Virus record (IMG/VR): IMGVR_UViG_3300047159_000064
Origin: a virus
Taxonomy: Duplodnaviria > Heunggongvirae > Uroviricota > Caudoviricetes
Direction: 5' to 3' (one strand)
Length of the DNA stretch: 64,000 bases
The notes below the pieces were generated by a model. The model ran no database searches. It was not told the origin of the DNA and was given only the letters and a program-made list of their open reading frames with translations. The position numbers and the translations under genes were made by a program. Within the stretch, counting starts at the first letter, position 1, and every line of letters begins with the position of its first letter. Of this stretch, positions 11,458 to 27,601 are shown in pieces.

Positions 11458-13413
11458 TTATTTGTTTTCGGTGAAGTCTTTGTCTTTGTCAGCTTCTTCT
11501 GGAGACGGCAGCGTGTTGTCGCTGTCCTCCACAAGGGCGTCGTTAGAGGCGCTGTCGCCTTTTTCGTCGAGCGATTCTTTTACGGCGCTGTCCGGCATCG
11601 GCGTTAGACTCAGCGCTGCGTCGTCTTTAGGCTTATCGCCTTCTGGCGCTTCTTCAGGCTTTGGCTCTTCGGCCGTTTCAGCGGCTTTCTTTTCGGCAGC
11701 CTCTTTGGCTTTATCGGCCTCTTCTTCGGCTTTTTTGGCCTCAGCCTCTTTCTTTTTGGCCTCTTCCAGCGAATTTATCTCGCCTTGTATCTCGGCGACG
11801 ACGTCATCGTTGTAGTTGAGCGAGCTTATCAGCGACTTCAGGATCTTGAGCCTTCTGCTCTTGTCTTCGACGTCGGTCAGCAGCGAATTGAGGTTGTTTA
11901 TGGCGTTGATTCTGTTAGCCATGTTGTCACGGTAGTCTATCTCTTCTTGTGTGACTGGCGCCTTTATCTTCAAGACGAAGTTGTTTATGTACGATTTGAG
12001 GCCTTTGTTTATCAGGATGAGGTTGATCACGTCGGTCACCATCTGTATGACCGAGTTCTGCACGCGTTTTATGCCTTTGGCGTAAACGCTTGACAGAATG
12101 GTCAGCGACGTTCCGCCGTTGAATCCTGCTCCGTCGTCGGTCCAGCCGAAATACTGCTTCGGTATGCCGTACGAAGAATAGAATTTGTTGTTCCACCAGT
12201 CTAGATCGGCCATGCTCTTTACTTCGACGTCGCCGCCGACGGAATCGACGGTGATGGCGCCTTGGCCGTTGTGGGTGGCGAAATAGATGTTGTTCTCCAT
12301 CGGGCCTGGGTTGTTGTACTCGGCCATGCTGCCGTCTTTGTTGAGCGCCGTTTTCTGCTCCATCATGTCTTTGACGCGGCGCAGCGTTTGCTGCACCTGC
12401 TCTTTAGACATGTCGCCGACTTCCACAGATACCTTTCTGAGAATGCTGGAGCGCGTTATTCTGTTGAGCAGCGCGGCGTTTTCAAGCAGCGCTTTCTCTC
12501 TCCAGATCTTATATGAGTCATAAAGAAGCGATTTGCCGCGCTTGACGGTGTAGGTCAGCGCGTTGGATCCTGCCGTGTAGTCGTTGTCGGACGTGAATAT
12601 CTGCACGGTCTCGGGGAACCTCGAGAAATTGTCTTCTAGGCAGGCGTGCGCGAAATCGTCGGCCTGATACACGTTGACGTCCGTGGATTTAAGCTTGTAG
12701 TTGAAAGCGGTTATCGTTTGGCCGCCCATGACGGCGTCTGATGTGTCGAAGCCTGTCGATTTCATGTTCGGCACTTCAATGTAGCCGTATGTCTTGCCGT
12801 ATTTCGTCAGCTCGAACATCGTGCTTGGATCCGGTATCATCTCGACGTAATAGCTGTATGGGTCGTTTGACGAATGGACGTTGAGGTTGACCGCCTCATT
12901 AAGCGTCCTGGTGGATTCGGCGTTATCGACGCTGTCTTTTGAGAACAGCCTGTCGTCGTAATCCGACTCTCTGTACAGCCTGAGATAGACGTCGCCGTAT
13001 TTCAGCAGCGAATAAGTCCATCCGTATATGTTCTTGTCGACGTTCATGACGTTGAGCAGGTAGTTGACGAATTTGCTTACCTTCGGATCGTTCGATTCGC
13101 ACCACATGATGTGGCCGTTGTCTGACATCTCGCAGACGTCTTCTGCGTAGGTTCTGACGATAGACGACACTGATGAGTCTTTGCACATCGTGTCTATCAG
13201 CTGATAGACTTGATCGCGCGAATTCGATATGTTGGTGAAATTATCGATCTCTGAGGTATCGAGTTTGCCAGTCAAGCCTGCGTCGATGATATTGTCGACC
13301 ATCGTTTTCTTGGTGTCGATATCAAGCTTTGTGGTGTCGTCTAGCACCGTCGGCTTTGCCTGGTTGCCGATCAAAGGGCTTCTCGGCGTAGATGGTTTCT
13401 TTTTTGCTGCCAT
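11458..13413 (-). CDS. Portal protein, T4 gp20-like
   Basis: YAEDVCE, LLKYGDVY, ALLNRITRS, SSYGIPKQY; follows TerL. Confidence 0.85.
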   Translation of the reverse strand: MAAKKKPSTPRSPLIGNQAKPTVLDDTTKLDIDTKKTMVDNIIDAGLTGKLDTSEIDNFTNISNSRDQVYQLIDTMCKDSSVSSIVRTYAEDVCEMSDNGHIMWCESNDPKVSKFVNYLLNVMNVDKNIYGWTYSLLKYGDVYLRLYRESDYDDRLFSKDSVDNAESTRTLNEAVNLNVHSSNDPYSYYVEMIPDPSTMFELTKYGKTYGYIEVPNMKSTGFDTSDAVMGGQTITAFNYKLKSTDVNVYQADDFAHACLEDNFSRFPETVQIFTSDNDYTAGSNALTYTVKRGKSLLYDSYKIWREKALLENAALLNRITRSSILRKVSVEVGDMSKEQVQQTLRRVKDMMEQKTALNKDGSMAEYNNPGPMENNIYFATHNGQGAITVDSVGGDVEVKSMADLDWWNNKFYSSYGIPKQYFGWTDDGAGFNGGTSLTILSSVYAKGIKRVQNSVIQMVTDVINLILINKGLKSYINNFVLKIKAPVTQEEIDYRDNMANRINAINNLNSLLTDVEDKSRRLKILKSLISSLNYNDDVVAEIQGEINSLEEAKKKEAEAKKAEEEADKAKEAAEKKAAETAEEPKPEEAPEGDKPKDDAALSLTPMPDSAVKESLDEKGDSASNDALVEDSDNTLPSPEEADKDKDFTENK

Positions 13414-13550: not shown

Positions 13551-15350
13551 TTATATTATGATTATGCCGTCCATGATGTCTTTGTAGGACTCGAGCTCCT
13601 CTTTCTTCTTTGGATCGATTTGCTCGCTTTCCTCTTCGCTGTCATGAAGCCCGGCGTAAGCCTTAGTCAGCTCTTCTTGGAACGCCGCGATCATCTGGCG
13701 TTTTCTGTATGCGTCGGATTCTCCTGCGTTGACGTCGAGCGCCGAATCGAGGCTCTCGCCGTAGCTGTATGAGTATTCTTCGGCGAATCCGCTCGCCAGA
13801 TACAGCGCGCCGCACACGGCGTCTGCCTGGTCTTTCGAGTTGATGCCGTCTGGCGTGTGGTCGATGTGGCCGTCAGGCTTTCTTTCAAGCCCTATAAGCT
13901 CGTCGGTCAGCAGATCGCATTTCTTGTATATGAGTATTCTTTTCTCGTATATCGCAGATTTCAGATATTGATACGGCAGGCAGACCTTAGTCTCCTTGTC
14001 GACTCGGTCTACGGAGATTATCTTCGTGTTGAACCCATCGCTCTTCAGATCCTGCTGTATTTGCGCGGATTGGAACGTATCTGACGAGATCCCTTTTATG
14101 GAGAATCCCTTGTCTCGCAGCCATCTTATGAAGTTTCTGTTTTTCTCGAAGCTGACCTGATAGCCTTTAGGCGCTTTCACCGATACGGAGAACGCGGTTC
14201 TGTAGCGCAGCTCCCTTGATGACTCCTCCGCGCCGTCTTTGCCTAATGCAGAAGCGGTTTTCCCGGTTATCCATACGCCGGCTATTCCGGTCTTGTCCCC
14301 GGTCATCGACATGTCGAGGTGTATGAACAACGGCCTCGCCATGTCGGCTGGGCTTACTTTGGACAAATCGAAGAAATTGGCGTATTGCGTATGATCGTCC
14401 GGCGAGTTTCCTACCTCTATGACGTCTTTGCTGAACGGGTTAGAATATTCGTCGGTCTTAGCCTGATTGAGCCTTACGCCCGAGATATATTTGGTGGCGC
14501 TGGACGACGACAGGCCTGCGATGTCCATCAAAGCTTGATCGAGGTTCGTTTCGAAGTCCTCTCTGAAGCCTGGCGGTATCTTCAGCATCATATAGCCTTT
14601 TTCTCTGTATTTGTCTATATCCGCCTCTGGGAATCCGACGGGCAGCAGCTCATGTGCAAGGAATTTGTTTCCGACAGCTACGTAGAAGCTTCCAGGATCG
14701 TTTGGGGATCCCTTGTCGTTTCTTATGACCCACTGAGGCTCGTCTATGATTAGCGTTGTTTTTGATTCATTTGTCTTTTTGGTATTTATGTACGAATCAA
14801 GGAAAGCCTGCTCTGTGTCTTTGGACGATATTATTATATTAAGCGTCGGAAGATAGGTGCCCTTCATGAAGCGCGATTTCATACGCGCGTCGATCTGGGC
14901 GATCATTTTCTTCTGTTTTTCTTTTTTCTTCTCTACGTCCGAGCCGATGCCGAAGTTAACCTCCACAAATGTTATCGTCTGGCTTTTTATCCAGGCTTCT
15001 TATGCTTTCGCATAAGGTCAGCGTACATTTCATTCCGCAATGGAACCGGACACTCTTGGGCAGATTATATTTATTCACTGCCTACGCGTTACGGTGGCTC
15101 GCCGCTCTTGCGATATCGGCGAGCTTACCTCGGTACCTGCATTTAAGCATCCACCGATTTTGCCCGAGTTATTTGTCTGACATCTCTGTCAGCCGGATCA
15201 AGTTAGTTTATCCGTTAAGTTACAGTTGTGTGATACGATGTAACTGTCGTTTGTCTTTATTAAGAAGTTGTTGTATGGAGCAGCCTCTATGACATCATAA
15301 TATTGCTTCGGCTCAGCGAGAGTAACTTTTCTCACTGATACTATTTTCAT
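13551..15350 (-). CDS. terL: Terminase large subunit, C-terminal part: join(15350..15210, 14963..13551); begins with the IntC half of a split intein
   Basis: IntC-HN/CNLTD|EVNFG restores the Walker B DE; nuclease motifs FIHLDMSMTGDKTG, ISSDTFQS, DHTPDGINSKDQADAVCG. Confidence 0.8.
14964..15209 (-). ncRNA. Group I self-splicing intron without an ORF (~246 nt)
   Basis: Pairings on the minus strand: P1 CGGAU/AUCCG, P2 CUGACA/UGUCAG, P3 CGGGC/GUCCG, P4 CGGUGG/CCACCG, P6 GGCAG/CUGCC, P7 AGUGU/ACGCU, P9 CUUAUGC-GAAA-GCAUAAG, terminal G; removal restores the frame; boundaries +/-1 nt. Confidence 0.8.
15225..15350 (-). mobile_element. Split intein C-fragment (IntC, 42 aa)
   Basis: MKIVSVRKVTLAEPKQYYDVIEAAPYNNFLIKTNDSYIVSHN followed by Cys(+1); too short for the ORF track. 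Confidence 0.8.
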
Positions 15351-15351
15351 G

Positions 15352-17145
15352 CTACATTGGTTCCTCCTTAATGTCTTTTAATTCGTCGTCTTCAGTAAGG
15401 TACTGAGCTTCTTTGTAAGTGCCATTTTTAAGCAATAGCTTATGATTTGGCGTGCAATGTATCACGGTTCCGTCTTCTAGGCTTATATGATATTCTTCAG
15501 AAGCCACAGTTGTCGGTTTTACCGTGCAGGTGTTGCTTATAGTCTTATTTCCGCTGTCATCTACAGAAATTACCTTTATCGGCTTGTCTACAAGGTCTTC
15601 TAATTTTTTATTGCCTTCTGTGGTCAGTATCTCTGTTTTGCCATCTAGACAAAACAAAGCACGGCCGACTATATGCCTGTTATTAGAGCCGAATATCAGC
15701 TCTATGCCTTTCGGCGGCTGCCATTGCGGATTAGTGCGGCTCGCGTTAAGGTTGCCGTGCGTCATGAATCACGGAGAATTCTGTATATGCTGCTGCAGCT
15801 TGTCCCAGCCTACGCCTTGCGCGGCGTCTAGGGTGATGTTGAGCATCGAGAAAGTTATCTTGTCGTTCGGCATCATGCCGTAATAAGTATAAGGATCTTT
15901 GAGGCATAGCATGCGATACAGCAGATAAAGCATGGCCACGACGGCTATTTCAGTGTTATGAGTCACGATGAAATCGTTGGTCAGGTAAAGATGCTCTTCG
16001 CTGTTTATGTAAATGCACTGGCAGAAGTCTTCGCCGACGTATTCTACGTCCGTTATGTATCTGTAAGGCTCGAACGCTTTGTCGTTCAGCCGCGCCTTTT
16101 TATCGTCCGTAGTGAAGGGGCAGATCGTTTTCGGCAATTTTATGGTTATGAGGATTTTGCTGTTCCTGTGCAGCGGCTTGTATTCTTTGGCGTGACATGT
16201 GCCGCCGAGCGATTCTACTAGCGTTATAAAATCTTTTTTCAAAGCTTTGTTTCGCGTGCATAAGAATATGTAAGAACCGTCTTTTCCGACGTATCCAGCA
16301 GAATCCATCATACCTTGCATGACGGCTATTCTCGTCTCTTTGTCGTTGAATAGGAAATCATCCGTTATGTGCAGGTCTTCTCCGCCTGCTTTTTTGCCGG
16401 CTTTTCCTAATGAAAGGCCGAACAGATACGGATTGACGAAAATGTTTTTATGCGCGAATTCTATCGGCGCGGTCATCGGTATTTTGTACCTGTGGTTATT
16501 GCCGCCGTCGTTTCTGCATTTCAGATTGCGGCTGTGATCCAGCAGCTCTTTGGTCTTTATGGTCTTCCAGACTTTGCTTTTGGTGTTGTATACGGTCCAA
16601 AGATGCTCGTCGCAGCAAAGCGTGGACGTTCCGTCTGAGAACGTCACTTTGCATATCATCATCTTACCCTGCGGGAAAATGCCGAGGATGTCATGAAGCT
16701 TTCCGTCGCTGCCGAATACCTTGTCTGATATCGACAAATCGCCCATTTTCTTATAGCCTGTTTCAGTCAGCACCAGCGAGCTCAGCGGCTGCGCTTTGCC
16801 TAAGCCGATAGCTCCGGTTAGTATCAACGTGTTGTAGCTGGTCGTGAGATTGTCGGGGAAAAGCTTATGCAGCATGTTTCTCCAATAAGGGAAAAGAGTG
16901 CACTGACGTTCGCCGGTGAACTCGTCTGTTCTTCAGATGTCATGCCCAAGATAGTCGTCGTTGTCTAAGAATTCGTCTATGGCGACGGGTATTTCTTCGA
17001 AATCTGAGTATTTGAGATCTTCTAAAGTGTCCGATTCGCCTTTTTGCGAGTATTCTTTTAGGATGCGCAGCGCCAGCTCTTTCTCTTGCGGAGAAAGCTT
17101 TTCCAGGGCCTCTATGTTTATGCTAGGAGCTTTTTGGTTTTCCAT
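15352..17145 (-). CDS. terL: Terminase large subunit, N-terminal part (597 aa with 2 TGA=Trp, a cis intein and IntN)
   Basis: Three track ORFs share one frame, joined by TGA at 16935-16933 (GHDI*RTD) and 15771-15769 (NSP*FMTHG); Walker A GAIGLGK|T. Confidence 0.85.
15355..15651 (-). mobile_element. Split intein N-fragment (IntN, 99 aa)
   Basis: CLDGKTEILTTEG (block A), IHCTPNHKLL (block B), ends at TAG 15354-15352. Confidence 0.8.
15955..16794 (-). mobile_element. Cis intein (280 aa, Ala1-type) with a degenerate LAGLIDADG domain, inside the TerL Walker A
   Basis: AQPLSSLVLTETG...CCDEHLW...FIVTHN|T; endonuclease blocks PYLFGLSLGKAG and QGMMDSAG. Confidence 0.9.
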
Positions 17146-17294: not shown

Positions 17295-18089
17295 CTACTT
17301 TTCGCCTTCTTCGCCAGGCTGCTCAGGCTTGGCCGCAGATTTTCCGTTCAGGCCGTTTATATACTCGATTAAGCCGTTTGTGTTCTTCAGCCTGTCTTCG
17401 CTGTCTATCAGGCCTTTTCCTACGGCGTCTTCCGCCGACATGCCGTACAGCTTAGGGAATATGATCGCCAAGAACGGCTTCTGCAGGTTCTGTTCGGCGT
17501 ATTTTACGTAATTGCTGATGACGCTGGCCACTTTCATCAGTCAGTCTCCGTTGTCCAGCACTAGCAGGATGTGCTTGCATCCTCTGCCTTTGTCGTCGTT
17601 TGGGTTCCTGATGTTGCGGCCGGGGCCAGGATCGTGCGCGGTATCGTCAACCGACACTCTGTTTATTATATTCCAGTGAGCGTAATTGTATTTGAAATCG
17701 TCGCAGGTGCATTTGACGAAGATATTGGTGGTGTTGAACGCTTTTGTCAGCGCTTGTATCACTGTTCTGAATTCGAATTTGTTTTTGTTGTTCTTTATGT
17801 TCTTCTGCATTTCGGCTACGACGCCGTCCATGCGCACGGTCACAGTGTAATTGTCTGTTTCTCCGGCTACGGGGATATCGACTTGCAGAAGATCTTTTTT
17901 GAACAGGTCGTTCATGTCTATTGTGTTGAAGCTTTTTGCCTGCCCTTCGACATGCGAAAATTTCCTGCGATCGTATCGGGTGGCGCCTCTCGTCGTGTCA
18001 GTTTTGTATTTGCCGGCGGCTTTTGATTTATTCAAAAGCAGCGTGCGCGTATCCTCATCAAGTATGCTATAAGCTTCTTTTTCTGTCAT
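17295..18089 (-). CDS. SWIM-type zinc-finger protein; TGA at 17543-17541 read as Trp
   Basis: CTCDDF...GCKH; two track ORFs joined in frame as LDNGD*LMKVASVI; likely start ATG 18089. Confidence 0.7.
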
Positions 18090-18110
18090 TTGCTTTGTTT
18101 CCGTCGCATA

Positions 18111-18119
18111 TAATTTAGC
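18111..18119 (-). promoter_or_regulatory. Candidate late promoter GCTAAATTA
   Basis: Exact copy, 22 nt upstream of 18089. Confidence 0.65.
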
Positions 18120-18150
18120 AGAAGATGAGCGGCATATTTTTATTAAAAAT

Positions 18151-18179
18151 AAAAACGAGACGGCATTTGTCTCGTTTTT
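18151..18179 (-). terminator. Intrinsic terminator
   Basis: aaaaacgagac-ggcattt-gtctcgttttt hairpin. Confidence 0.7.
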
Positions 18180-18204
18180 GCGCATTAGCGTCTATATTTC
18201 AGCT

Positions 18205-19620
18205 TTATTCGTCTTCGTCTTCGTCGTCCGGCTGATCTTTTATTTTGCCTTCTACCGTGAATAGCCTGGTAGGCAGCTTATTTGGCATTACGTACGAGAA
18301 GTCATATTTGCCATGCGCGCCTTTTCTTGCGTATTTCACGAAAGCTTGGCGCTGCAGGGCTGCTATCATGCCGTCTACTTCTGATTCTTTTACGTTGTAA
18401 ATGAAGAAGTAGCCGTTGCTTTGGACTATCGGCTGCTCGCCGGTAACCCTGGCGATGTTTATCCTGCACTGATTGCGGAATTTTTCCTTCAGCTCCTCTT
18501 TCAGCGATTCCAAAGACAGCGTCTTAGACGTCATTTTGTCTTTCAACGCCTTGAGATCGTCCAGTATGTTCATGCTTCTTATCTCTTTGAAGGTAAGGTT
18601 GTCTATGCTGTATTCGTCTCCGTCTTTCAAGCCGTTTTTGCGCAGTTCGTACAGGTCTTCTATGTACTTGTCTATCTCATCGTAGACAATCTGAGGATCT
18701 GCTTTATCGTCTTTTGTATCTAAGATTATCTTATCGGCTCTTTCTTTCCATTTGGCGACTTTATCGCCTAGCGCCTGCTTGTCTATGTCAGGTATAGCCT
18801 CATGTTTTGGCTCTTTGATCCATTCGTTGTTTTTCACAGAATAGATGCCATTGCTGACCGTCGGCATGTCGCCTGTTTCTACGAACAGCTCGACCGGCGT
18901 GCCATAAAGCGTTATGTCGAATTTCTTGTTGAATAGGCTTCTGTACGCGTTGTATATCGCCGGATAAAGATTATCAGGGCATTTCAGCGCGTCGGTGTCA
19001 GCCATGATATGGACATCTAAATCGCTGTCTTCCGTGTAATTGTAATTGGCGTTGGATCCAATTATCAGAATGTCGTTTATCAGAATATTTATGCCATCTT
19101 GCTCGAGCTCTTCTACGAAGGCGTTAACTATCTCCAGGATGTGCTCGCGCACGTCGTCTTTTAGCTTTTTGTCGTCGCCGTACAAGCGCGGATTAAGCAC
19201 TTCATGCTTTTCGACGTTCTCATCGAGATCGTCATACTGATCCATGGCTTCCGTTATAGTGCCGTCAAGCACCTGTTGGGCATGCTCCAGGAACGGCTTC
19301 CATTCGCCCATGATTGAAATTAGGTAATTGCCGTATTGCTCTGCGTCGTATTTGTCTATGCCGAATTCTGACTTTAGCCTAGCTGCATAGCCTTCTTGCA
19401 CTTCTTTTCAGCCTAAAATAGCCGCAATCATGCAATAATGCAGCATTTTGAATTTGTCTTTTGTGCTTCTGACGAGATTGTACGGCTGGTTTATCCAATC
19501 GGCTTGCGCGCCTTTGTCTTTGAAGCATTTATAATGCTGCGCCATGCGCGTGAAATCGCGCTGCGTCAGCGCGAGATTAGCTTTATCGGTCAGGTCTAGG
19601 TTTTCGTTGATCATTGTCAT
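18205..19620 (-). CDS. Pol-beta-superfamily nucleotidyltransferase with an N-terminal extension; TGA at 19410-19408 read as Trp
   Basis: GSNANYNYTEDSDLDVH (GS..DxD), VELFVE; track ORFs joined as AILG*KEVQEG. Confidence 0.75.
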
Positions 19621-19653
19621 TTTTATCGCCTTTCAGCGCTTGTAGCTTTGTAG

Positions 19654-23901: not shown

Positions 23902-25020
23902 TTAGTCCTTGATGACGTTATTGAGCAGATATATTGCCGCGTCTGTAGGATTTATGCCTGTGTCTTGCTCGAGATCGTTTGTCATCATGTCTTTGACTTT
24001 TTCGTACCATTCATGATATTCGGTGCGATATTTCTTCAGCACCTCTTCGGCGACGTATTTCTCTTCCGGCGTGTACAGCGTTATGCTGTTGCCTCCGCTG
24101 AAGATGGTTATCTGTTTGTTTATGGCAGTCGCCGCTATCTGCTTGAGCAGATCGTCTACTGCGGCGTCCGATACGCCTTCGGCTGTCGCCGAATCGAAAA
24201 GATTTTTGGCGAGGGCTCTGAAATCTTCGTTCCACTGCTTCATTCCAACTGGCGTCATGACTTTGCATCCGCCGTCTATGAAATCTTTGAGCGGCCCTTT
24301 TATTATGGATTTGGCGTTGATGTCCTGATACGCGTTATACGCAGAAATAACGGAGAGCGTTATTTGATCTTTGGTCGGATCTGCCGTGTGCAGCGGCACC
24401 TTTATTTTGCCGTTGCTGTTTATGGCGGCGGTTATGTTGGCTATCTCTTCTTCAAGTTTGTCGCACATTTCCTCAAGCGTCAGATTCTGTCATTCAGGTC
24501 GATGGTCTTCGGTGACCAATCCGCTTATTATCTTGCCGTTGAGCCAGATGTTGCGCACGGTCTCTTTGTCTTCGTCTGTGTAGCGCTTGTTGGATATCTC
24601 GTCGTCTTCAAGTATGTTAAGCAGATCGTGGATTGTCGCGCTTTTTGCTATTTTGTCGTAATTAGGTATCTTGCGCATCAGCCTTATCTGGTGCATGAGC
24701 AGGTTATGCGAAAGCTCATGCCTGAGAATGACGTTGAGCTGGCTGAATACCGACGGATCGGCCAAAAGGCCTTCTCCAATGAAGATTACTCCGTCGTCGA
24801 AGGAAATAGCCGCCGTGAATCTAGGGTCTGCGGCCAATGGCACTATATTGACGTCGAATTTCTCCAAACGCGCGGCGTATTTGGCGTGATGATGACCTTT
24901 TCCGTCGTCGCGCAAAAGGCGAATAAGCGCCTTTTTAAGCGCTTTTTCGCGGTCGGTCATGAAAGCCCTAGCTTTGGCTTCGGTCAATAAGATGTTGTCG
25001 TCGCTTTCTTGCATGCTCAT
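23902..25020 (-). CDS. HExxH putative metallopeptidase-domain protein; TGA at 24492-24490 read as Trp
   Basis: LRHELSHNLLMH, NILEDDEISN; joined as EDHRPE*QNLTLEEMCDKL. Confidence 0.7.
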
Positions 25021-25038
25021 TTTTGCGCGCTCGCGGTT

Positions 25039-26463
25039 TTAAAACGTCGGCCAATTGGCCATCGCGCCTTTTATGTTGCCTACTGCAACGGCAGGCGATA
25101 CCGTTCTGGCGGATCCTGTAGCCGCAGGCTGAGAGAAGAACGAGCCGTCGTCTTCTATATCAGCTTCTTTTGCTTCTGGCTCCGCAGGCTTTTCAGGCTC
25201 TACGGCCACCGTTGTTTTTCCGGCGTCTAAGTTGATGCCTTTAGCCTTGCACAGGTCTTCGAACGACGGCACTACGTAGTCCGCCAGTATGTGATGCAGA
25301 AGCTCTTTGTCTTTCTCTAGGAATTCTGAGTAGTCGTCTACCCACTTCTCGAATTTGTCTTTGTCGCCTTCGGCGAGATTGAGGCCGTCGGTCAGCGATC
25401 TCTGATTGAACATCGTCGCTTGCTGATCTGCCAGATCCTCCAAATCGTCTTTGGTGTCGAATCCTGGCGTGAACTCTTTGTGCGAGCAGATGAATGTTCC
25501 GAGGTCTTGCACGCGCAGGTATTGCTCCAGGTCGTCTTTGTAGAATTCGTCTTTTGGATTCAGCTTGTTTATCTTGAAATCGTAGTTTTTCTTGAAGTAG
25601 TCCAGCGCCGTCAAAGGATTGGAATCGAATTCCAGCTTGAGCGGGAAACGAGACAGCTCGGCGTCGTTAAGCGGAGCCGCGCCTTTGTCGGTAGGAACTG
25701 CCGGGTTGATGCAGGCTATGGTGAAAAGCAGGTTTTTGAACACGTGCGTTCCCTTCGGCGTGTCGTCTCCGGCGATAGTATGCTCGTTGATTAAAGTATA
25801 AAGCGAAGCTCTGATCTGCGGCTTTACCTGGCGGTTGTATTCGTCCAAGAACAGAATCGAATTAGGTTTTTCCAAGCCGTTGAGGTTGGTGGAAAACGCG
25901 TTGGTGACCCTGTTCGGATTGTCCGCCGAGCGCACTGTATAGCCGTTTATGTAGGCGTCAAGATCGTTGTTCTTGGCATTGATGTATACGATGTTTACCT
26001 TCGGCGAAGCCTTGGCCGCTCAGTCGTATACGGAAGCGGTTTTTCCAGAGCCAGGGAGCCCTGTTACCAGGACGTTCTGGTTCAGCGATGCGTTCTGCCT
26101 TTTCGCCCTTAAAGCGCTGCGAAGCGCCAAATCGAGCGTGCGGGTTAGCTCGTTGTCCGTGCCGATGCTAGAATCTTCGTCTTTTGTCACGACCGCGACA
26201 GTTCCGGCGTTAAGCTCGCTCGCTGCCGCCTTGACCTCTGCGGCCATCGTCTGCGCCGCGGCAGGCGTCACGGTCTTCTCGCCTTCTGACGCGCCTTCGA
26301 CGTGGTCCGTCAGGTCTTTGGCTATCTCAGCCGTGCTTTGGTCGGTGCTTATAGGCGCCGTCGCCTCGGCCTTAGATAGCTCAGGCTCTTTCTTTTCTTC
26401 GGGCTTTACCTCTTCTTCGGCTTCTGTCAGCTTGTCGTCTGCGACTTTTTTGTTTAGTTTCAT
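25039..26463 (-). CDS. AAA+ ATPase (MoxR/dynein-like); TGA at 26022-26020 read as Trp
   Basis: Walker A GLPGSGKT, Walker B ILFLDEYNR, ACINP, LSRF; joined as SVYD*AAK. Confidence 0.85.
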
Positions 26464-26482
26464 AATGGTTATCTCCTTGCTG

Positions 26483-27601
26483 TTATTCGCGGTCGAATGC
26501 TTCAGAATAGACATCGATGTCCATTATGTTGTATTTGCCAGGCAGCTTCTCCTTGCTTTTTATAATCTCGGCTTCGGCGTCTGCTTCTTTTTTAGCGTCT
26601 TCGGTCAGCGTGGCCTCATCGCCTTCGTCTACGCCTTCGTTGAGCTTGACGGCATTGATGTAGCATTCGCCGCAGTCTGTGCCCATTTTGTAGTAGCCGT
26701 TCTGATTAAGCCTTGCGGTTCTGACTCTCAGGCCCGCGTATTTCTGGCTGCTGTAGGTCACCGTGCCATCCGTCGGATCCGTCTGCTGCGTCAGATTGTG
26801 CAATTTGACGTAATTCTGCATGAATGCGTCGGCGTCTGGCAACCGTATTGAAGCACGCCGCGCAATCGGTATATCCTTTGGCGCTGCCTTCGAGCACTTT
26901 GTTGCTCGCCGGCGTTACGCTTCCGTCGGCTCCTTTAGAGCCCAAAGGATCTATGAACAAACAAGGCACATTGGCGCCTTTTTTGTCGAATTCCAGAGTG
27001 AATATCTTTCCGCTGTCGCCTGTCGGATGCTCTTTCTGCCCCGGCGTGCCGATCAAAGCGCGCGCCTTGCTGCTTTGCGGGCCTTGAGATTTATAATCGT
27101 TCTTAGGCTGGCCGCTTGTCGCCTGCGTTTGGCTTTGATTGGCGCCTTGAGACATTCTGCGAAAGGAAGCAATCGAAATCCCACAGCGCTCCGCCGAACA
27201 CGCTAGCCCTGTACTGGTCCATCTCATTCGTTGTTCTGTTTGTGTTGACGTCGTCCCAGTAAATGCCGCAGCTCTTGCAGAATGACGCGATGTATTTTGC
27301 GAGCATCGGTGCTGGCTTTTTTATGTATTTGCCTGTGGTCTGCGCCTTGTGCTTTCACCCAGAACCAGCCTGATCGAAGACAAGGTACTCTGAGCGCGTT
27401 GTCGACATTAAAAAAATCGAATGATCTGAACTTTATCTCATCGCAGACCACTTTGGCGTCTGACGCCGTTCTTTCTGCTATGTAGTTTGATACGCTGTCT
27501 GCTCTTTTGCTGTCGGCCTTATCCAAAATGCCGCCGGCGATGAACAGATCGTTCAAAAAGCCCATAGCGGCTAATTTTTGATCTTCTGTTAGCTTTGCCA
27601 T
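26483..27601 (-). CDS. Hypothetical protein broken by several apparent indels
   Basis: Four overlapping track ORFs hand protein-like sequence from frame to frame; late motif upstream. Confidence 0.5.

Follow-up and report, generated by a model that had tools for sequence, protein, structure and literature searches.

How could a tailed phage obtain a working large terminase (TerL) from a gene that standard annotation renders as unconnected pieces? The question is raised by positions 13551 to 17145 of a 64,000-nt stretch (hereafter, the window) of the IMG/VR virus record IMGVR_UViG_3300047159_000064. Read with translation table 11, the minus strand of this locus yields four fragments (17145-16933, 16875-15769, 15765-15352, and 14966-13551) and a fifth frame of 50 amino acids (15350-15198); the first three fragments are one frame with two TGAs when these are read through. 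An initial annotation had proposed that a single terminase gene lies here under four decoding layers, namely TGA readthrough, cis protein splicing, RNA self-splicing, and trans protein splicing. We recovered four layers and the same junction sequences, and the two TGAs, the 280-amino-acid intein in Walker A, the two halves of a split intein (IntN and IntC), and the break between the Asp and Glu of Walker B (D|E) all lie where that annotation had placed them on the minus strand. The anatomy of the locus, its conservation, and the covariation within its intron were observed directly. We conclude with high confidence that the locus encodes the large terminase (T4 gp17-like) of a T4-like jumbo phage of wastewater and sludge in which TGA is recoded to Trp, that the gene has been colonized by three independent selfish elements, and that active TerL would be reached by the full route of RNA splicing, insertion of Trp at UGA, cis splicing, and trans splicing. 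The parts of the gene are as follows.

15352-17145, minus strand: TerL-N frame (precursor 1), 597 amino acids if TGA is Trp, ending in TAG; it comprises extein 1 (117 amino acids), intein 1 (280), extein 2 (101), and IntN (99), and AAGGAGG precedes its start codon (ATG at 17145) by 11 nt.
16933-16935, minus strand: first TGA, amino acid 71, facing an invariant W (GIW/GLW) in five intact relatives and in the relatives L009 and L010.
15955-16794, minus strand: intein 1, 280 amino acids (AQPL...IVTHN|T), between GLGK and T of Walker A.
15769-15771, minus strand: second TGA, amino acid 459, facing an invariant W (SPWF/SSWF/SDWF) in relatives.
15355-15651, minus strand: IntN, 99 amino acids (CLDGKTEI...EEPM), after GRALF, with block A CLDGKTEI and block B CTPNHKL; Pfam Intein_splicing match, E 6.8e-7.
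15348-15369, minus strand: split junction, consisting of AAGGAGG (15369-15363), the last codon ATG, the stop TAG (15354-15352), one base (15351), and ATG (15350-15348).
15225-15350, minus strand: IntC, 42 amino acids (MKIV...VSHN), with block F YYDVIEAAPYNNFLI and block G SYIVSHN, then Cys+1.
15210-15224, minus strand: exon 1 of the C-extein, CNLTD (five codons), the last being the Walker B Asp; it matches CNLTD/CNFTD of intact relatives.
14964-15209, minus strand: group I-type intron, 246 nt, without an open reading frame, cutting Walker B at D|E five codons past the split-intein junction.
13551-14963, minus strand: exon 2, from EVNFG to the TerL C terminus, 470 amino acids plus stop, carrying the remainder of the ATPase together with the nuclease domain.

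We rebuilt the mature protein by cutting residues 118 to 397 of TerL-N and everything after GRALF, adding the five residues that follow ...VSHN in the 50-amino-acid frame, and continuing from EVNFG onward. This removes the intein (16794-15955), IntN (15651-15355), IntC (15350-15225), and the 246 nt (15209-14964), with both TGAs taken as Trp. The rebuilt TerL has 693 amino acids and aligned without a gap over every junction with five uninterrupted relatives, at 70.5 to 76.6% identity. Both TGAs align to an invariant W of the intact relatives, and the rebuilt junctions, GLGKT and GRALFCNLTDEVNFG, are the same as those in the relatives P0003 and P0016. The initial annotation had described the joined Walker B region GRALF-CNLTD-EVNFG as coherent and had suggested alignment with uninterrupted relatives as a check, and the gap-free alignment bears this out.

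Several further lines support the assignment to TerL. Exon 2 is 74 to 77% identical to its relatives over its whole length, and its tblastn matches include genes annotated as large terminase in Listeria phage LIS04 and Bacillus phage SP-15. Thousands of relatives were returned for the C-terminal fragment, mostly uninterrupted proteins of ∼680 to 690 amino acids belonging to Pfam PF27249, on contigs of up to 270 kb. PHROG terminase families match, and a Walker A and Walker B ATPase is followed by a nuclease domain. The window also holds a portal gene at 11458-13413, and relatives with PF27249 have Portal_T4 and Gp23 neighbors. As a separate observation on this protein family, the TerL C-terminal fragments of P0013, P0015, P0041, and P0049 begin at differing points (P0013 at DVEKKK), which suggests extra intron or intein sites a few codons further on.

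This layout is not an assembly artifact. Sequencing runs from 13 studies of wastewater, sludge, and bioreactors (2021 to 2025) contain the stretch or part of it, with at least half of the sampled words present in 16 runs. In a different study, a 104,681-nt contig matches the whole 3,595 nt except for 6 substitutions, with no indel. A third study supplied a contig of 1,741 nt that extends over the second TGA, IntN, the split, IntC, and the intron and differs by a single substitution. In neither of these independent contigs does a listed substitution fall on a TGA or on the split junction. The frame layout is also identical in P0001, a 98% relative, and in L134 (85%). The split thus holds as first proposed, since contigs of two other studies carry no indel at it. 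Given that the layout is unchanged in contigs of two independent studies and persists over studies, the essential gene must be functional in this form.

We then consider the TGAs, which had been annotated as readthrough sites; a genome-wide code change describes them better. The relatives' TerL genes, with 5 to 6 in-frame TGAs each, give their database proteins only when TGA is W, and the neighboring genes of these relatives, which mostly contain 1 to 17 in-frame TGAs, stop at TAA or TAG only, never at TGA. In the window, TGAs of three other genes could be aligned.

17295-18191, minus strand: one gene of ∼296 amino acids that table 11 splits into open reading frames of 214 (18185-17541) and 80 amino acids (17537-17295); its TGA at 17543-17541 is W in L009 and L010.
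23902-25038, minus strand: frame whose TGA at codon 183 faces W in relatives.
25039-26523, minus strand: frame with an in-frame TGA that faces F in relatives.

Together with the two in TerL, 4 of the 5 aligned TGAs in the window face W and 1 faces F. In favor of the TerL TGAs being instead sites of gene-specific programmed readthrough or selenocysteine insertion, most long genes of the window have no in-frame TGA and use TGG. However, the TGAs at 17543-17541 and at codon 183 of 23902-25038 align to W in other genes, and among the relatives most genes carry such codons and no gene ends in TGA, which makes this explanation exceedingly improbable. TGA thus encodes Trp (code 4) throughout this phage and its relatives. 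The recoding is sparse in what is a 51% GC genome, and a single TerL family spans different codes (TAG = Q in L130, TGA = W in L009 and L010). We also note that the frame at 18205-19653 (minus strand) is open for 84 codons upstream of its listed GTG start (19401) if two TGAs are sense codons, so that this gene may begin far upstream of its table 11 start.

Intein 1 interrupts Walker A in frame at a point where relatives are continuous (GLGKT/GIGKS), and it ends in HN before T. It has Ala at position 1, a Trp two residues after the block B His (DEHLW), a Cys in block F (DFCQCIY) where Asp is usual, and a THN|T end, a combination that we take to be the Trp-Cys-Thr signature of class 3 inteins (Tori and Perler). 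By phmmer, its N-terminal part matched the gp41-1 intein (6RIZ, E 4.8e-9) and also DnaB inteins; EHLW, LICIEV, and LTHN are the gp41-1 counterparts in the alignment, and the block numbering used here follows from this gp41-1 alignment, not from a curated class 3 alignment. Intein 1 therefore appears to have class 3 hallmarks, and it resembles class 3 inteins such as that in mycobacteriophage Bethlehem DnaB in its Ala1, block B Trp, block F Cys, Thr-His-Asn end, Thr or Ser at +1, and insertion in a P-loop. The same intein occupies the same site in P0097 and in L129 (AQPLDS...IVTHN|S); L129, whose TerL is ∼47% identical, has the same key residues and an intact LAGLIDADG motif (YILGVLIGDG). In the window, the LAGLIDADG insert is degenerate, its motifs reading GLSLGKAG and GMMDSAG, and the Pfam LAGLIDADG models gave no match to intein 1 at an E value of ≤1; its endonuclease is probably dead. 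In a different member of the family, the TerL of L132 contains a further intein (Intein_splicing plus HNH_3, L132:3328-3909) in its nuclease half, a third intein site in the family.

The second intein lies before Walker B with its halves on separate frames and all its catalytic blocks intact. The extein-IntN fragment was aligned with 16 relatives at 48 to 99% identity, and the same break is found in relatives at 48 to 87% identity. L134, from another sample and with 85% IntN identity, has the identical 1-nt junction. In other relatives the halves lie further apart: L135 has 103 nt with its own GGAGG between IntN and IntC, L129 has an HNH/NUMOD3 endonuclease gene there, L130 and L136 have an HNH gene after IntN, and L131 has two genes between the halves. 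No free-standing endonuclease gene, of the kind present in relatives, separates the halves in the window, where a single base lies between them. These relatives were taken from the protein database; a search of IMG/VR with IntN produced pattern matches, and no relative was confirmed among them. The window split thus seems to be a "fractured gene" of the type described by Dassa et al. (PMC2677866), minus its free-standing HNH endonuclease. In structure prediction, the IntN-IntC complex scored 0.69 against 0.01 for the best control, with contacts agreeing to at least 91% between runs and a partner predicted local distance difference test (pLDDT) value of 73, a result that may reflect likeness to solved split inteins; the mark set for complexes was reached by 51 of 78 solved complexes and by 2 of 108 mismatched pairs.

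The tight junction also admits a reading in which the intein is not split at all and IntN is fused to IntC, ahead of cis splicing, when ribosomes undergo a programmed +1 frameshift at AUG-UAG-C under the stimulus of the upstream AAGGAGG, as in prfB. IntC does lie in the +1 frame one base past the stop, AAGGAGG stands 5 nt before the last sense codon, and in L132 the same intein is one contiguous frame, a mini-intein whose IntC part is 83% identical to that of the window. This would not account for relatives in which the halves stand apart, with either an HNH gene or 103 nt bearing a separate ribosome-binding site between them. Moreover, AAGGAGG stands 12 nt before the IntC ATG, and the TerL start uses the same AAGGAGG at 11 nt, which makes 12 nt a normal initiation spacing in this phage. 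Re-pairing from AUG to UGU is also poor, and the spacing of 5 nt compares with 3 nt in prfB. We therefore regard frameshifting as very unlikely, and independent initiation of IntC appears to be the rule in this split-intein family.

Base composition separates the two inteins. Intein 1 (GC 0.47, GC at third codon positions [GC3] 0.62) does not differ from the exteins (all exteins, GC 0.489, GC3 0.55 to 0.64), and its equal GC and GC3 suggest an old resident. IntN (GC 0.394, GC3 0.38) and IntC (GC 0.373, GC3 0.45) are AT-rich, which suggests a recent arrival from low-GC relatives (31 to 32% GC). The earlier impression that the inserted segments are richer in AT than their flanks therefore stood for the split intein halves only, and failed for intein 1 and for the intron (GC 0.47).

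The third element is the 246 nt between the Walker B Asp and Glu. Their removal restores the frame (GAU|GAG) and gives ...CNLTD-EVNFG..., identical to P0003 and P0016. Numbered so that window position equals 15210 minus intron position, the predicted structure on the minus strand is as follows.

Intron 18-23/28-33: P2.
Intron 44-48/159-163: P3.
Intron 53-58/75-80: P4.
Intron 61-63/70-72: P5.
Intron 86-93/106-113: P6.
Intron 123-127/185-189: P7.
Intron 128-132/147-151: P7.1-like helix with the invariant 14-nt loop UGAAUAAAUAUAAU.
Intron 164-168/174-178: P8.
Intron 194-200/205-211: P9.
Intron 214-219/228-233: P9.1.
Intron 246: last base, G.

This structure was derived from the window and by-eye covariation, and it was scored on a set of 22 sequences comprising the window and 21 family members without an open reading frame. 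Paired bases filled 87.3% of cells, compared with 30 to 41% in slid controls; the covariation score was 0.61 against 0.08 to 0.13, and 0 of 500 shuffles reached it. P3, P4, P6, P7, P7.1, P9, and P9.1 are 96 to 100% paired, and 41 of the 58 pairs show double changes; P2 and P8 occur in each sequence but are poorly aligned. P3 and P7 cross, as in the group I pseudoknot. Two earlier placements were discarded: P3 as 45-48/149-152, because the homologues covary at 128-132/147-151 and 44-48/159-163, and P4 as 54-59/113-118, because its compensating change belongs to P6 and 53-58/75-80 covaries in six sequences. The intron folds better than 200 of 200 shuffles (z-score, -3.4), and a family profile built without the window matched only 15196-14957 in the whole 64 kb (E 2.2e-45).

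The splice sites could be placed as well. At the 3′ end, G246 stands six bases after a conserved GAUAACA, in the same place in 20 of 21 relatives. A candidate P10 pairs intron AACUU (6-10) with AGGUU of exon 2 and is kept in L132 with AAGUU, a one-sided change. For P1, the exon end CGGAU can pair with intron positions 12-16 (AUCCG), and the 5′ exon ends in U.

The same element is found far beyond this gene. By blastn, parts of the intron recur in unannotated DNA of unrelated phages. Family members lie between the DNA polymerase halves of Enterococcus phage fHoEfa06 (after an HNH gene), between the tape measure halves of Streptococcus phage Javan355 (after a homing endonuclease), after a LAGLIDADG gene in Leptolyngbya phage Lbo-JY46, after a "mobile intron protein" in crAss cr6_1, and after TerL in crAss cr131_1. 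A 27-nt pattern of the intron core is present in at least 117 IMG/VR contigs. Besides the invariant loop, the family conserves CAAGAGUG; L090 carries three copies of the intron. Several other contigs share the intron core alone in run X3, which is labeled RNA-Seq and is probably DNA. Taken together, the covariation supporting a group I core and the spread of the family over so many contigs uphold the group I intron that had been proposed at the Walker B D|E site, and the sequence evidence identifies the intervening RNA as a putative group I-type intron with a core that includes the P3/P7 pseudoknot. Rfam has no model that detects the family, and a less probable reading would make it a group I subtype not yet classified.

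A number of observations weigh against this reading of the locus. The splice-site U faces A12, or G11 only if A12 bulges, and the arrangement is identical in L132, whereas most family members appear, by eye, to have the canonical U-G wobble at GGU sites. Rfam gave no group I (RF00028) match, either over the whole window at the gathering threshold or over 14800-15400 at an E value of ≤10, and nothing in the loci of three family members. In control searches, the T4 td intron scored 40.3 against a gathering threshold of 50 bits and the T4 nrdB intron was missed; because the same library misses nrdB and scores td below threshold, we consider the silence of Rfam weak evidence. With nhmmer, the family profile had no significant match to the T4 td and nrdB introns. 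The metatranscriptomes X17 and X18 contain short contigs of a relative ∼90 to 95% alike, with no splice joint and no cover over 14991-15830. One contig from an RNA run ends at 14954 and carries 12 loose letters, GAT GAA GTC AAT on the coding strand (D-E-V-N), which places Asp and Glu side by side in the relative and could derive from spliced RNA or from the DNA or RNA of an intronless relative. A search of the 64,000-nt window for tRNAs found none, hence no suppressor tRNA there. Finally, in the unspliced IntC frame the standard code stops at a TGA after three intron codons, and with code 4 the frame passes through five UGA codons and first meets a stop, TAA, at intron position 207. With efficient UGA reading, ribosomes on unspliced RNA would therefore run 207 nt into the ribozyme and could hinder its folding; in L132, the second intron codon is TAA.

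If the 246 nt stayed in the RNA, TerL would exist as separate, noncovalent polypeptides, or the locus would be a decaying pseudogene with another terminase active. The RNA and Rfam results above are compatible with this, and a GTG at 14966 could in principle start translation. However, no Shine-Dalgarno sequence precedes this GTG, and the break would part the Walker B Asp from the catalytic Glu. An intron retained in this way is likewise at odds with an RNA fold kept by covariation over a whole family whose members split other essential genes, with exons that are 70 to 77% identical to intact relatives and undamaged in frame, and with the persistence of the phage in many samples. We judge retention of the intron extremely unlikely and continue with self-splicing as the preferred explanation.

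The route to active TerL that we propose joins these elements in one pathway, each chemical step of which is predicted from sequence features. A late transcript would carry two frames, and the 246-nt ribozyme would excise itself and join ...ACGGAU to GAGGUU..., so that the spliced second frame would encode IntC-CNLTD-EVNFG..., 517 amino acids. UGA would be read as Trp, presumably by a phage suppressor tRNA encoded outside the window, and IntC would initiate at its own ATG one base past the TerL-N stop, with AAGGAGG upstream. Intein 1 would leave in cis by the class 3 route, in which, with Ala as residue 1, the attack on the junction falls to the block F Cys, and this would restore GLGK-T of Walker A. 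IntN and IntC would then associate and trans-splice, ligating GRALF to CNLTDEVNFG and so completing Walker B.

Whether such a stack is adaptive can be addressed through the relatives. L132, whose TerL is ∼50 to 54% identical, carries this intron at the corresponding D|E position, 75 to 78% identical near its full length and 15 nt after the same intein in contiguous form. L129 and L131 have the split intein and no intron, and many relatives (P0002 and others) have no insert. The intein-intron combination therefore appears recurrent and not obligatory, which speaks for selfish colonization of the Walker motifs rather than a designed gate. An AND-gate on packaging had been raised in the initial annotation; as considered here, packaging would need RNA splicing and protein splicing and late-phase UGA decoding, which together would act as a timer. 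Some support could be drawn from the retention of the intein-intron pair in the distant L132, from the proposal that recoded stops in late genes serve as a translation timer (Borges et al., bioRxiv 10.1101/2021.08.26.457843), and from the product expected of unspliced RNA, IntC-CNLTDKLT (longer if UGA is read), which we infer could cap TerL-N as a dead end. Against this, relatives function with no insert, with the split intein minus the intron, or with the intron next to a contiguous intein; the two sites coincide with the most conserved motifs, which homing elements usually target; and the decayed endonuclease motifs of intein 1 and the lost endonuclease gene of the split intein are what is expected at the end of a homing cycle. 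We found nothing in support of an AND-gate on packaging; the elements come and go independently among relatives, and an adaptive gate is unlikely. The other explanation offered at the outset, that mobile elements are drawn to ATPase motifs, fits this independent variation better. Homing into the two ATPase motifs that are most conserved is the most likely cause of the stacking, rather than regulation. The locus is extreme in the number of selfish elements that it has accumulated but ordinary in mechanism, as each trick is already known.

Also rather improbable is the idea that the intein and the intron, 15 nt apart, form one co-mobile unit and that the layers interfere with each other. Co-mobility would fit the finding that IntC (83% amino acid identity) and the intron (75 to 78% nucleotide identity) are more alike between the window and L132 than TerL is (∼50 to 54% amino acid identity). 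If true, homing at either site would co-convert the other, unspliced RNA would yield an IntC decoy that could cap TerL-N irreversibly so that the efficiency of RNA splicing would set the yield of active terminase, and the phage's decoding of UGA as Trp would remove the stop that normally keeps ribosomes off the ribozyme core.

Group I introns of subgroup IA, which in phages include the terminase intron of Lactobacillus phage LL-H, typically have an additional helix between P7 and P3. We presume a link of the window intron to subgroup IA from its architecture and from a resemblance of motifs. Like the T4 td and nrdB introns, annotated "group 1A" in NC_000866, the window intron has a P1-P9 core with a P3/P7 pseudoknot, a helix between P7 and P3, an exon U, and a terminal G; it likewise sits in a conserved motif of an essential phage gene, and members of its family accompany homing endonucleases. 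It differs from td and nrdB in having no significant sequence match to them, a single P7.1-like helix with an invariant 14-nt loop, and a P1 without a clean U-G wobble.

All the kinds of element at this locus have been published, as have pairs of them within a single phage gene (PMC2677866; PMC7886860; bioRxiv 10.1101/2021.08.26.457843). The fractured genes of Dassa et al. have a free-standing homing endonuclease placed between the two parts of a split intein, and they include one gp17-like terminase locus. As in those genes, the window gene is broken at the usual endonuclease insertion point of the intein, and L129, L130, and L136 have the IntN-HNH-IntC layout; unlike them, the window has no endonuclease gene and its halves are one base apart. 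The terminase case of Dassa et al. has an unusual break point with a C-terminal part of 122 amino acids, whereas the window intein is split at the canonical point (99 plus 42 amino acids) before Walker B. Yutin et al. (PMC7886860) reported a TerL with two inteins and TAG recoding and a PolB with introns and TGA recoding, and the fragmentation of terminase genes by mobile introns is mentioned by Borges et al. The literature likewise already contains code 4 phages, relatives that differ in code, and TerL genes with recoding (PMC7886860; bioRxiv 10.1101/2021.08.26.457843). The window phage resembles code 4 phages in having TGA at Trp positions in late genes, including TerL, within a clade of mixed codes; it differs in being GC-balanced (51%), T4-like, from wastewater, and poor in TGAs. 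Neighboring inteins are reported to interfere with each other's homing (PMC10643990), a system that parallels the window in placing several mobile elements in a short stretch of a conserved ATPase gene. Those cases are inteins only, in an archaeal MCM protein, as opposed to an intein and an intron 15 nt apart. We found no published account of a gene that combines recoding with a cis intein, a split intein, and an intron, nor any of a split intein that lacks its endonuclease and lies 15 nt from an intron.

The locus implies no new mechanism. Standard pipelines return four unconnected fragments from it and miss both IntC and the intron; because the fragments stay unconnected, surveys and the TerL trees on which phage taxonomy relies can lose an essential marker gene of recoded, element-ridden phages. 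Rfam does not see the intron family, which is widespread in phages, so that a new covariance model would be useful. Protein-ligation tools might be developed from the pair of 99 plus 42 amino acids and from the class 3-like intein. For the family itself, the relatives form a series, from a contiguous mini-intein through an HNH fractured gene and a split with a spacer to the one-base split of the window, which shows a split intein persisting after the loss of its endonuclease.

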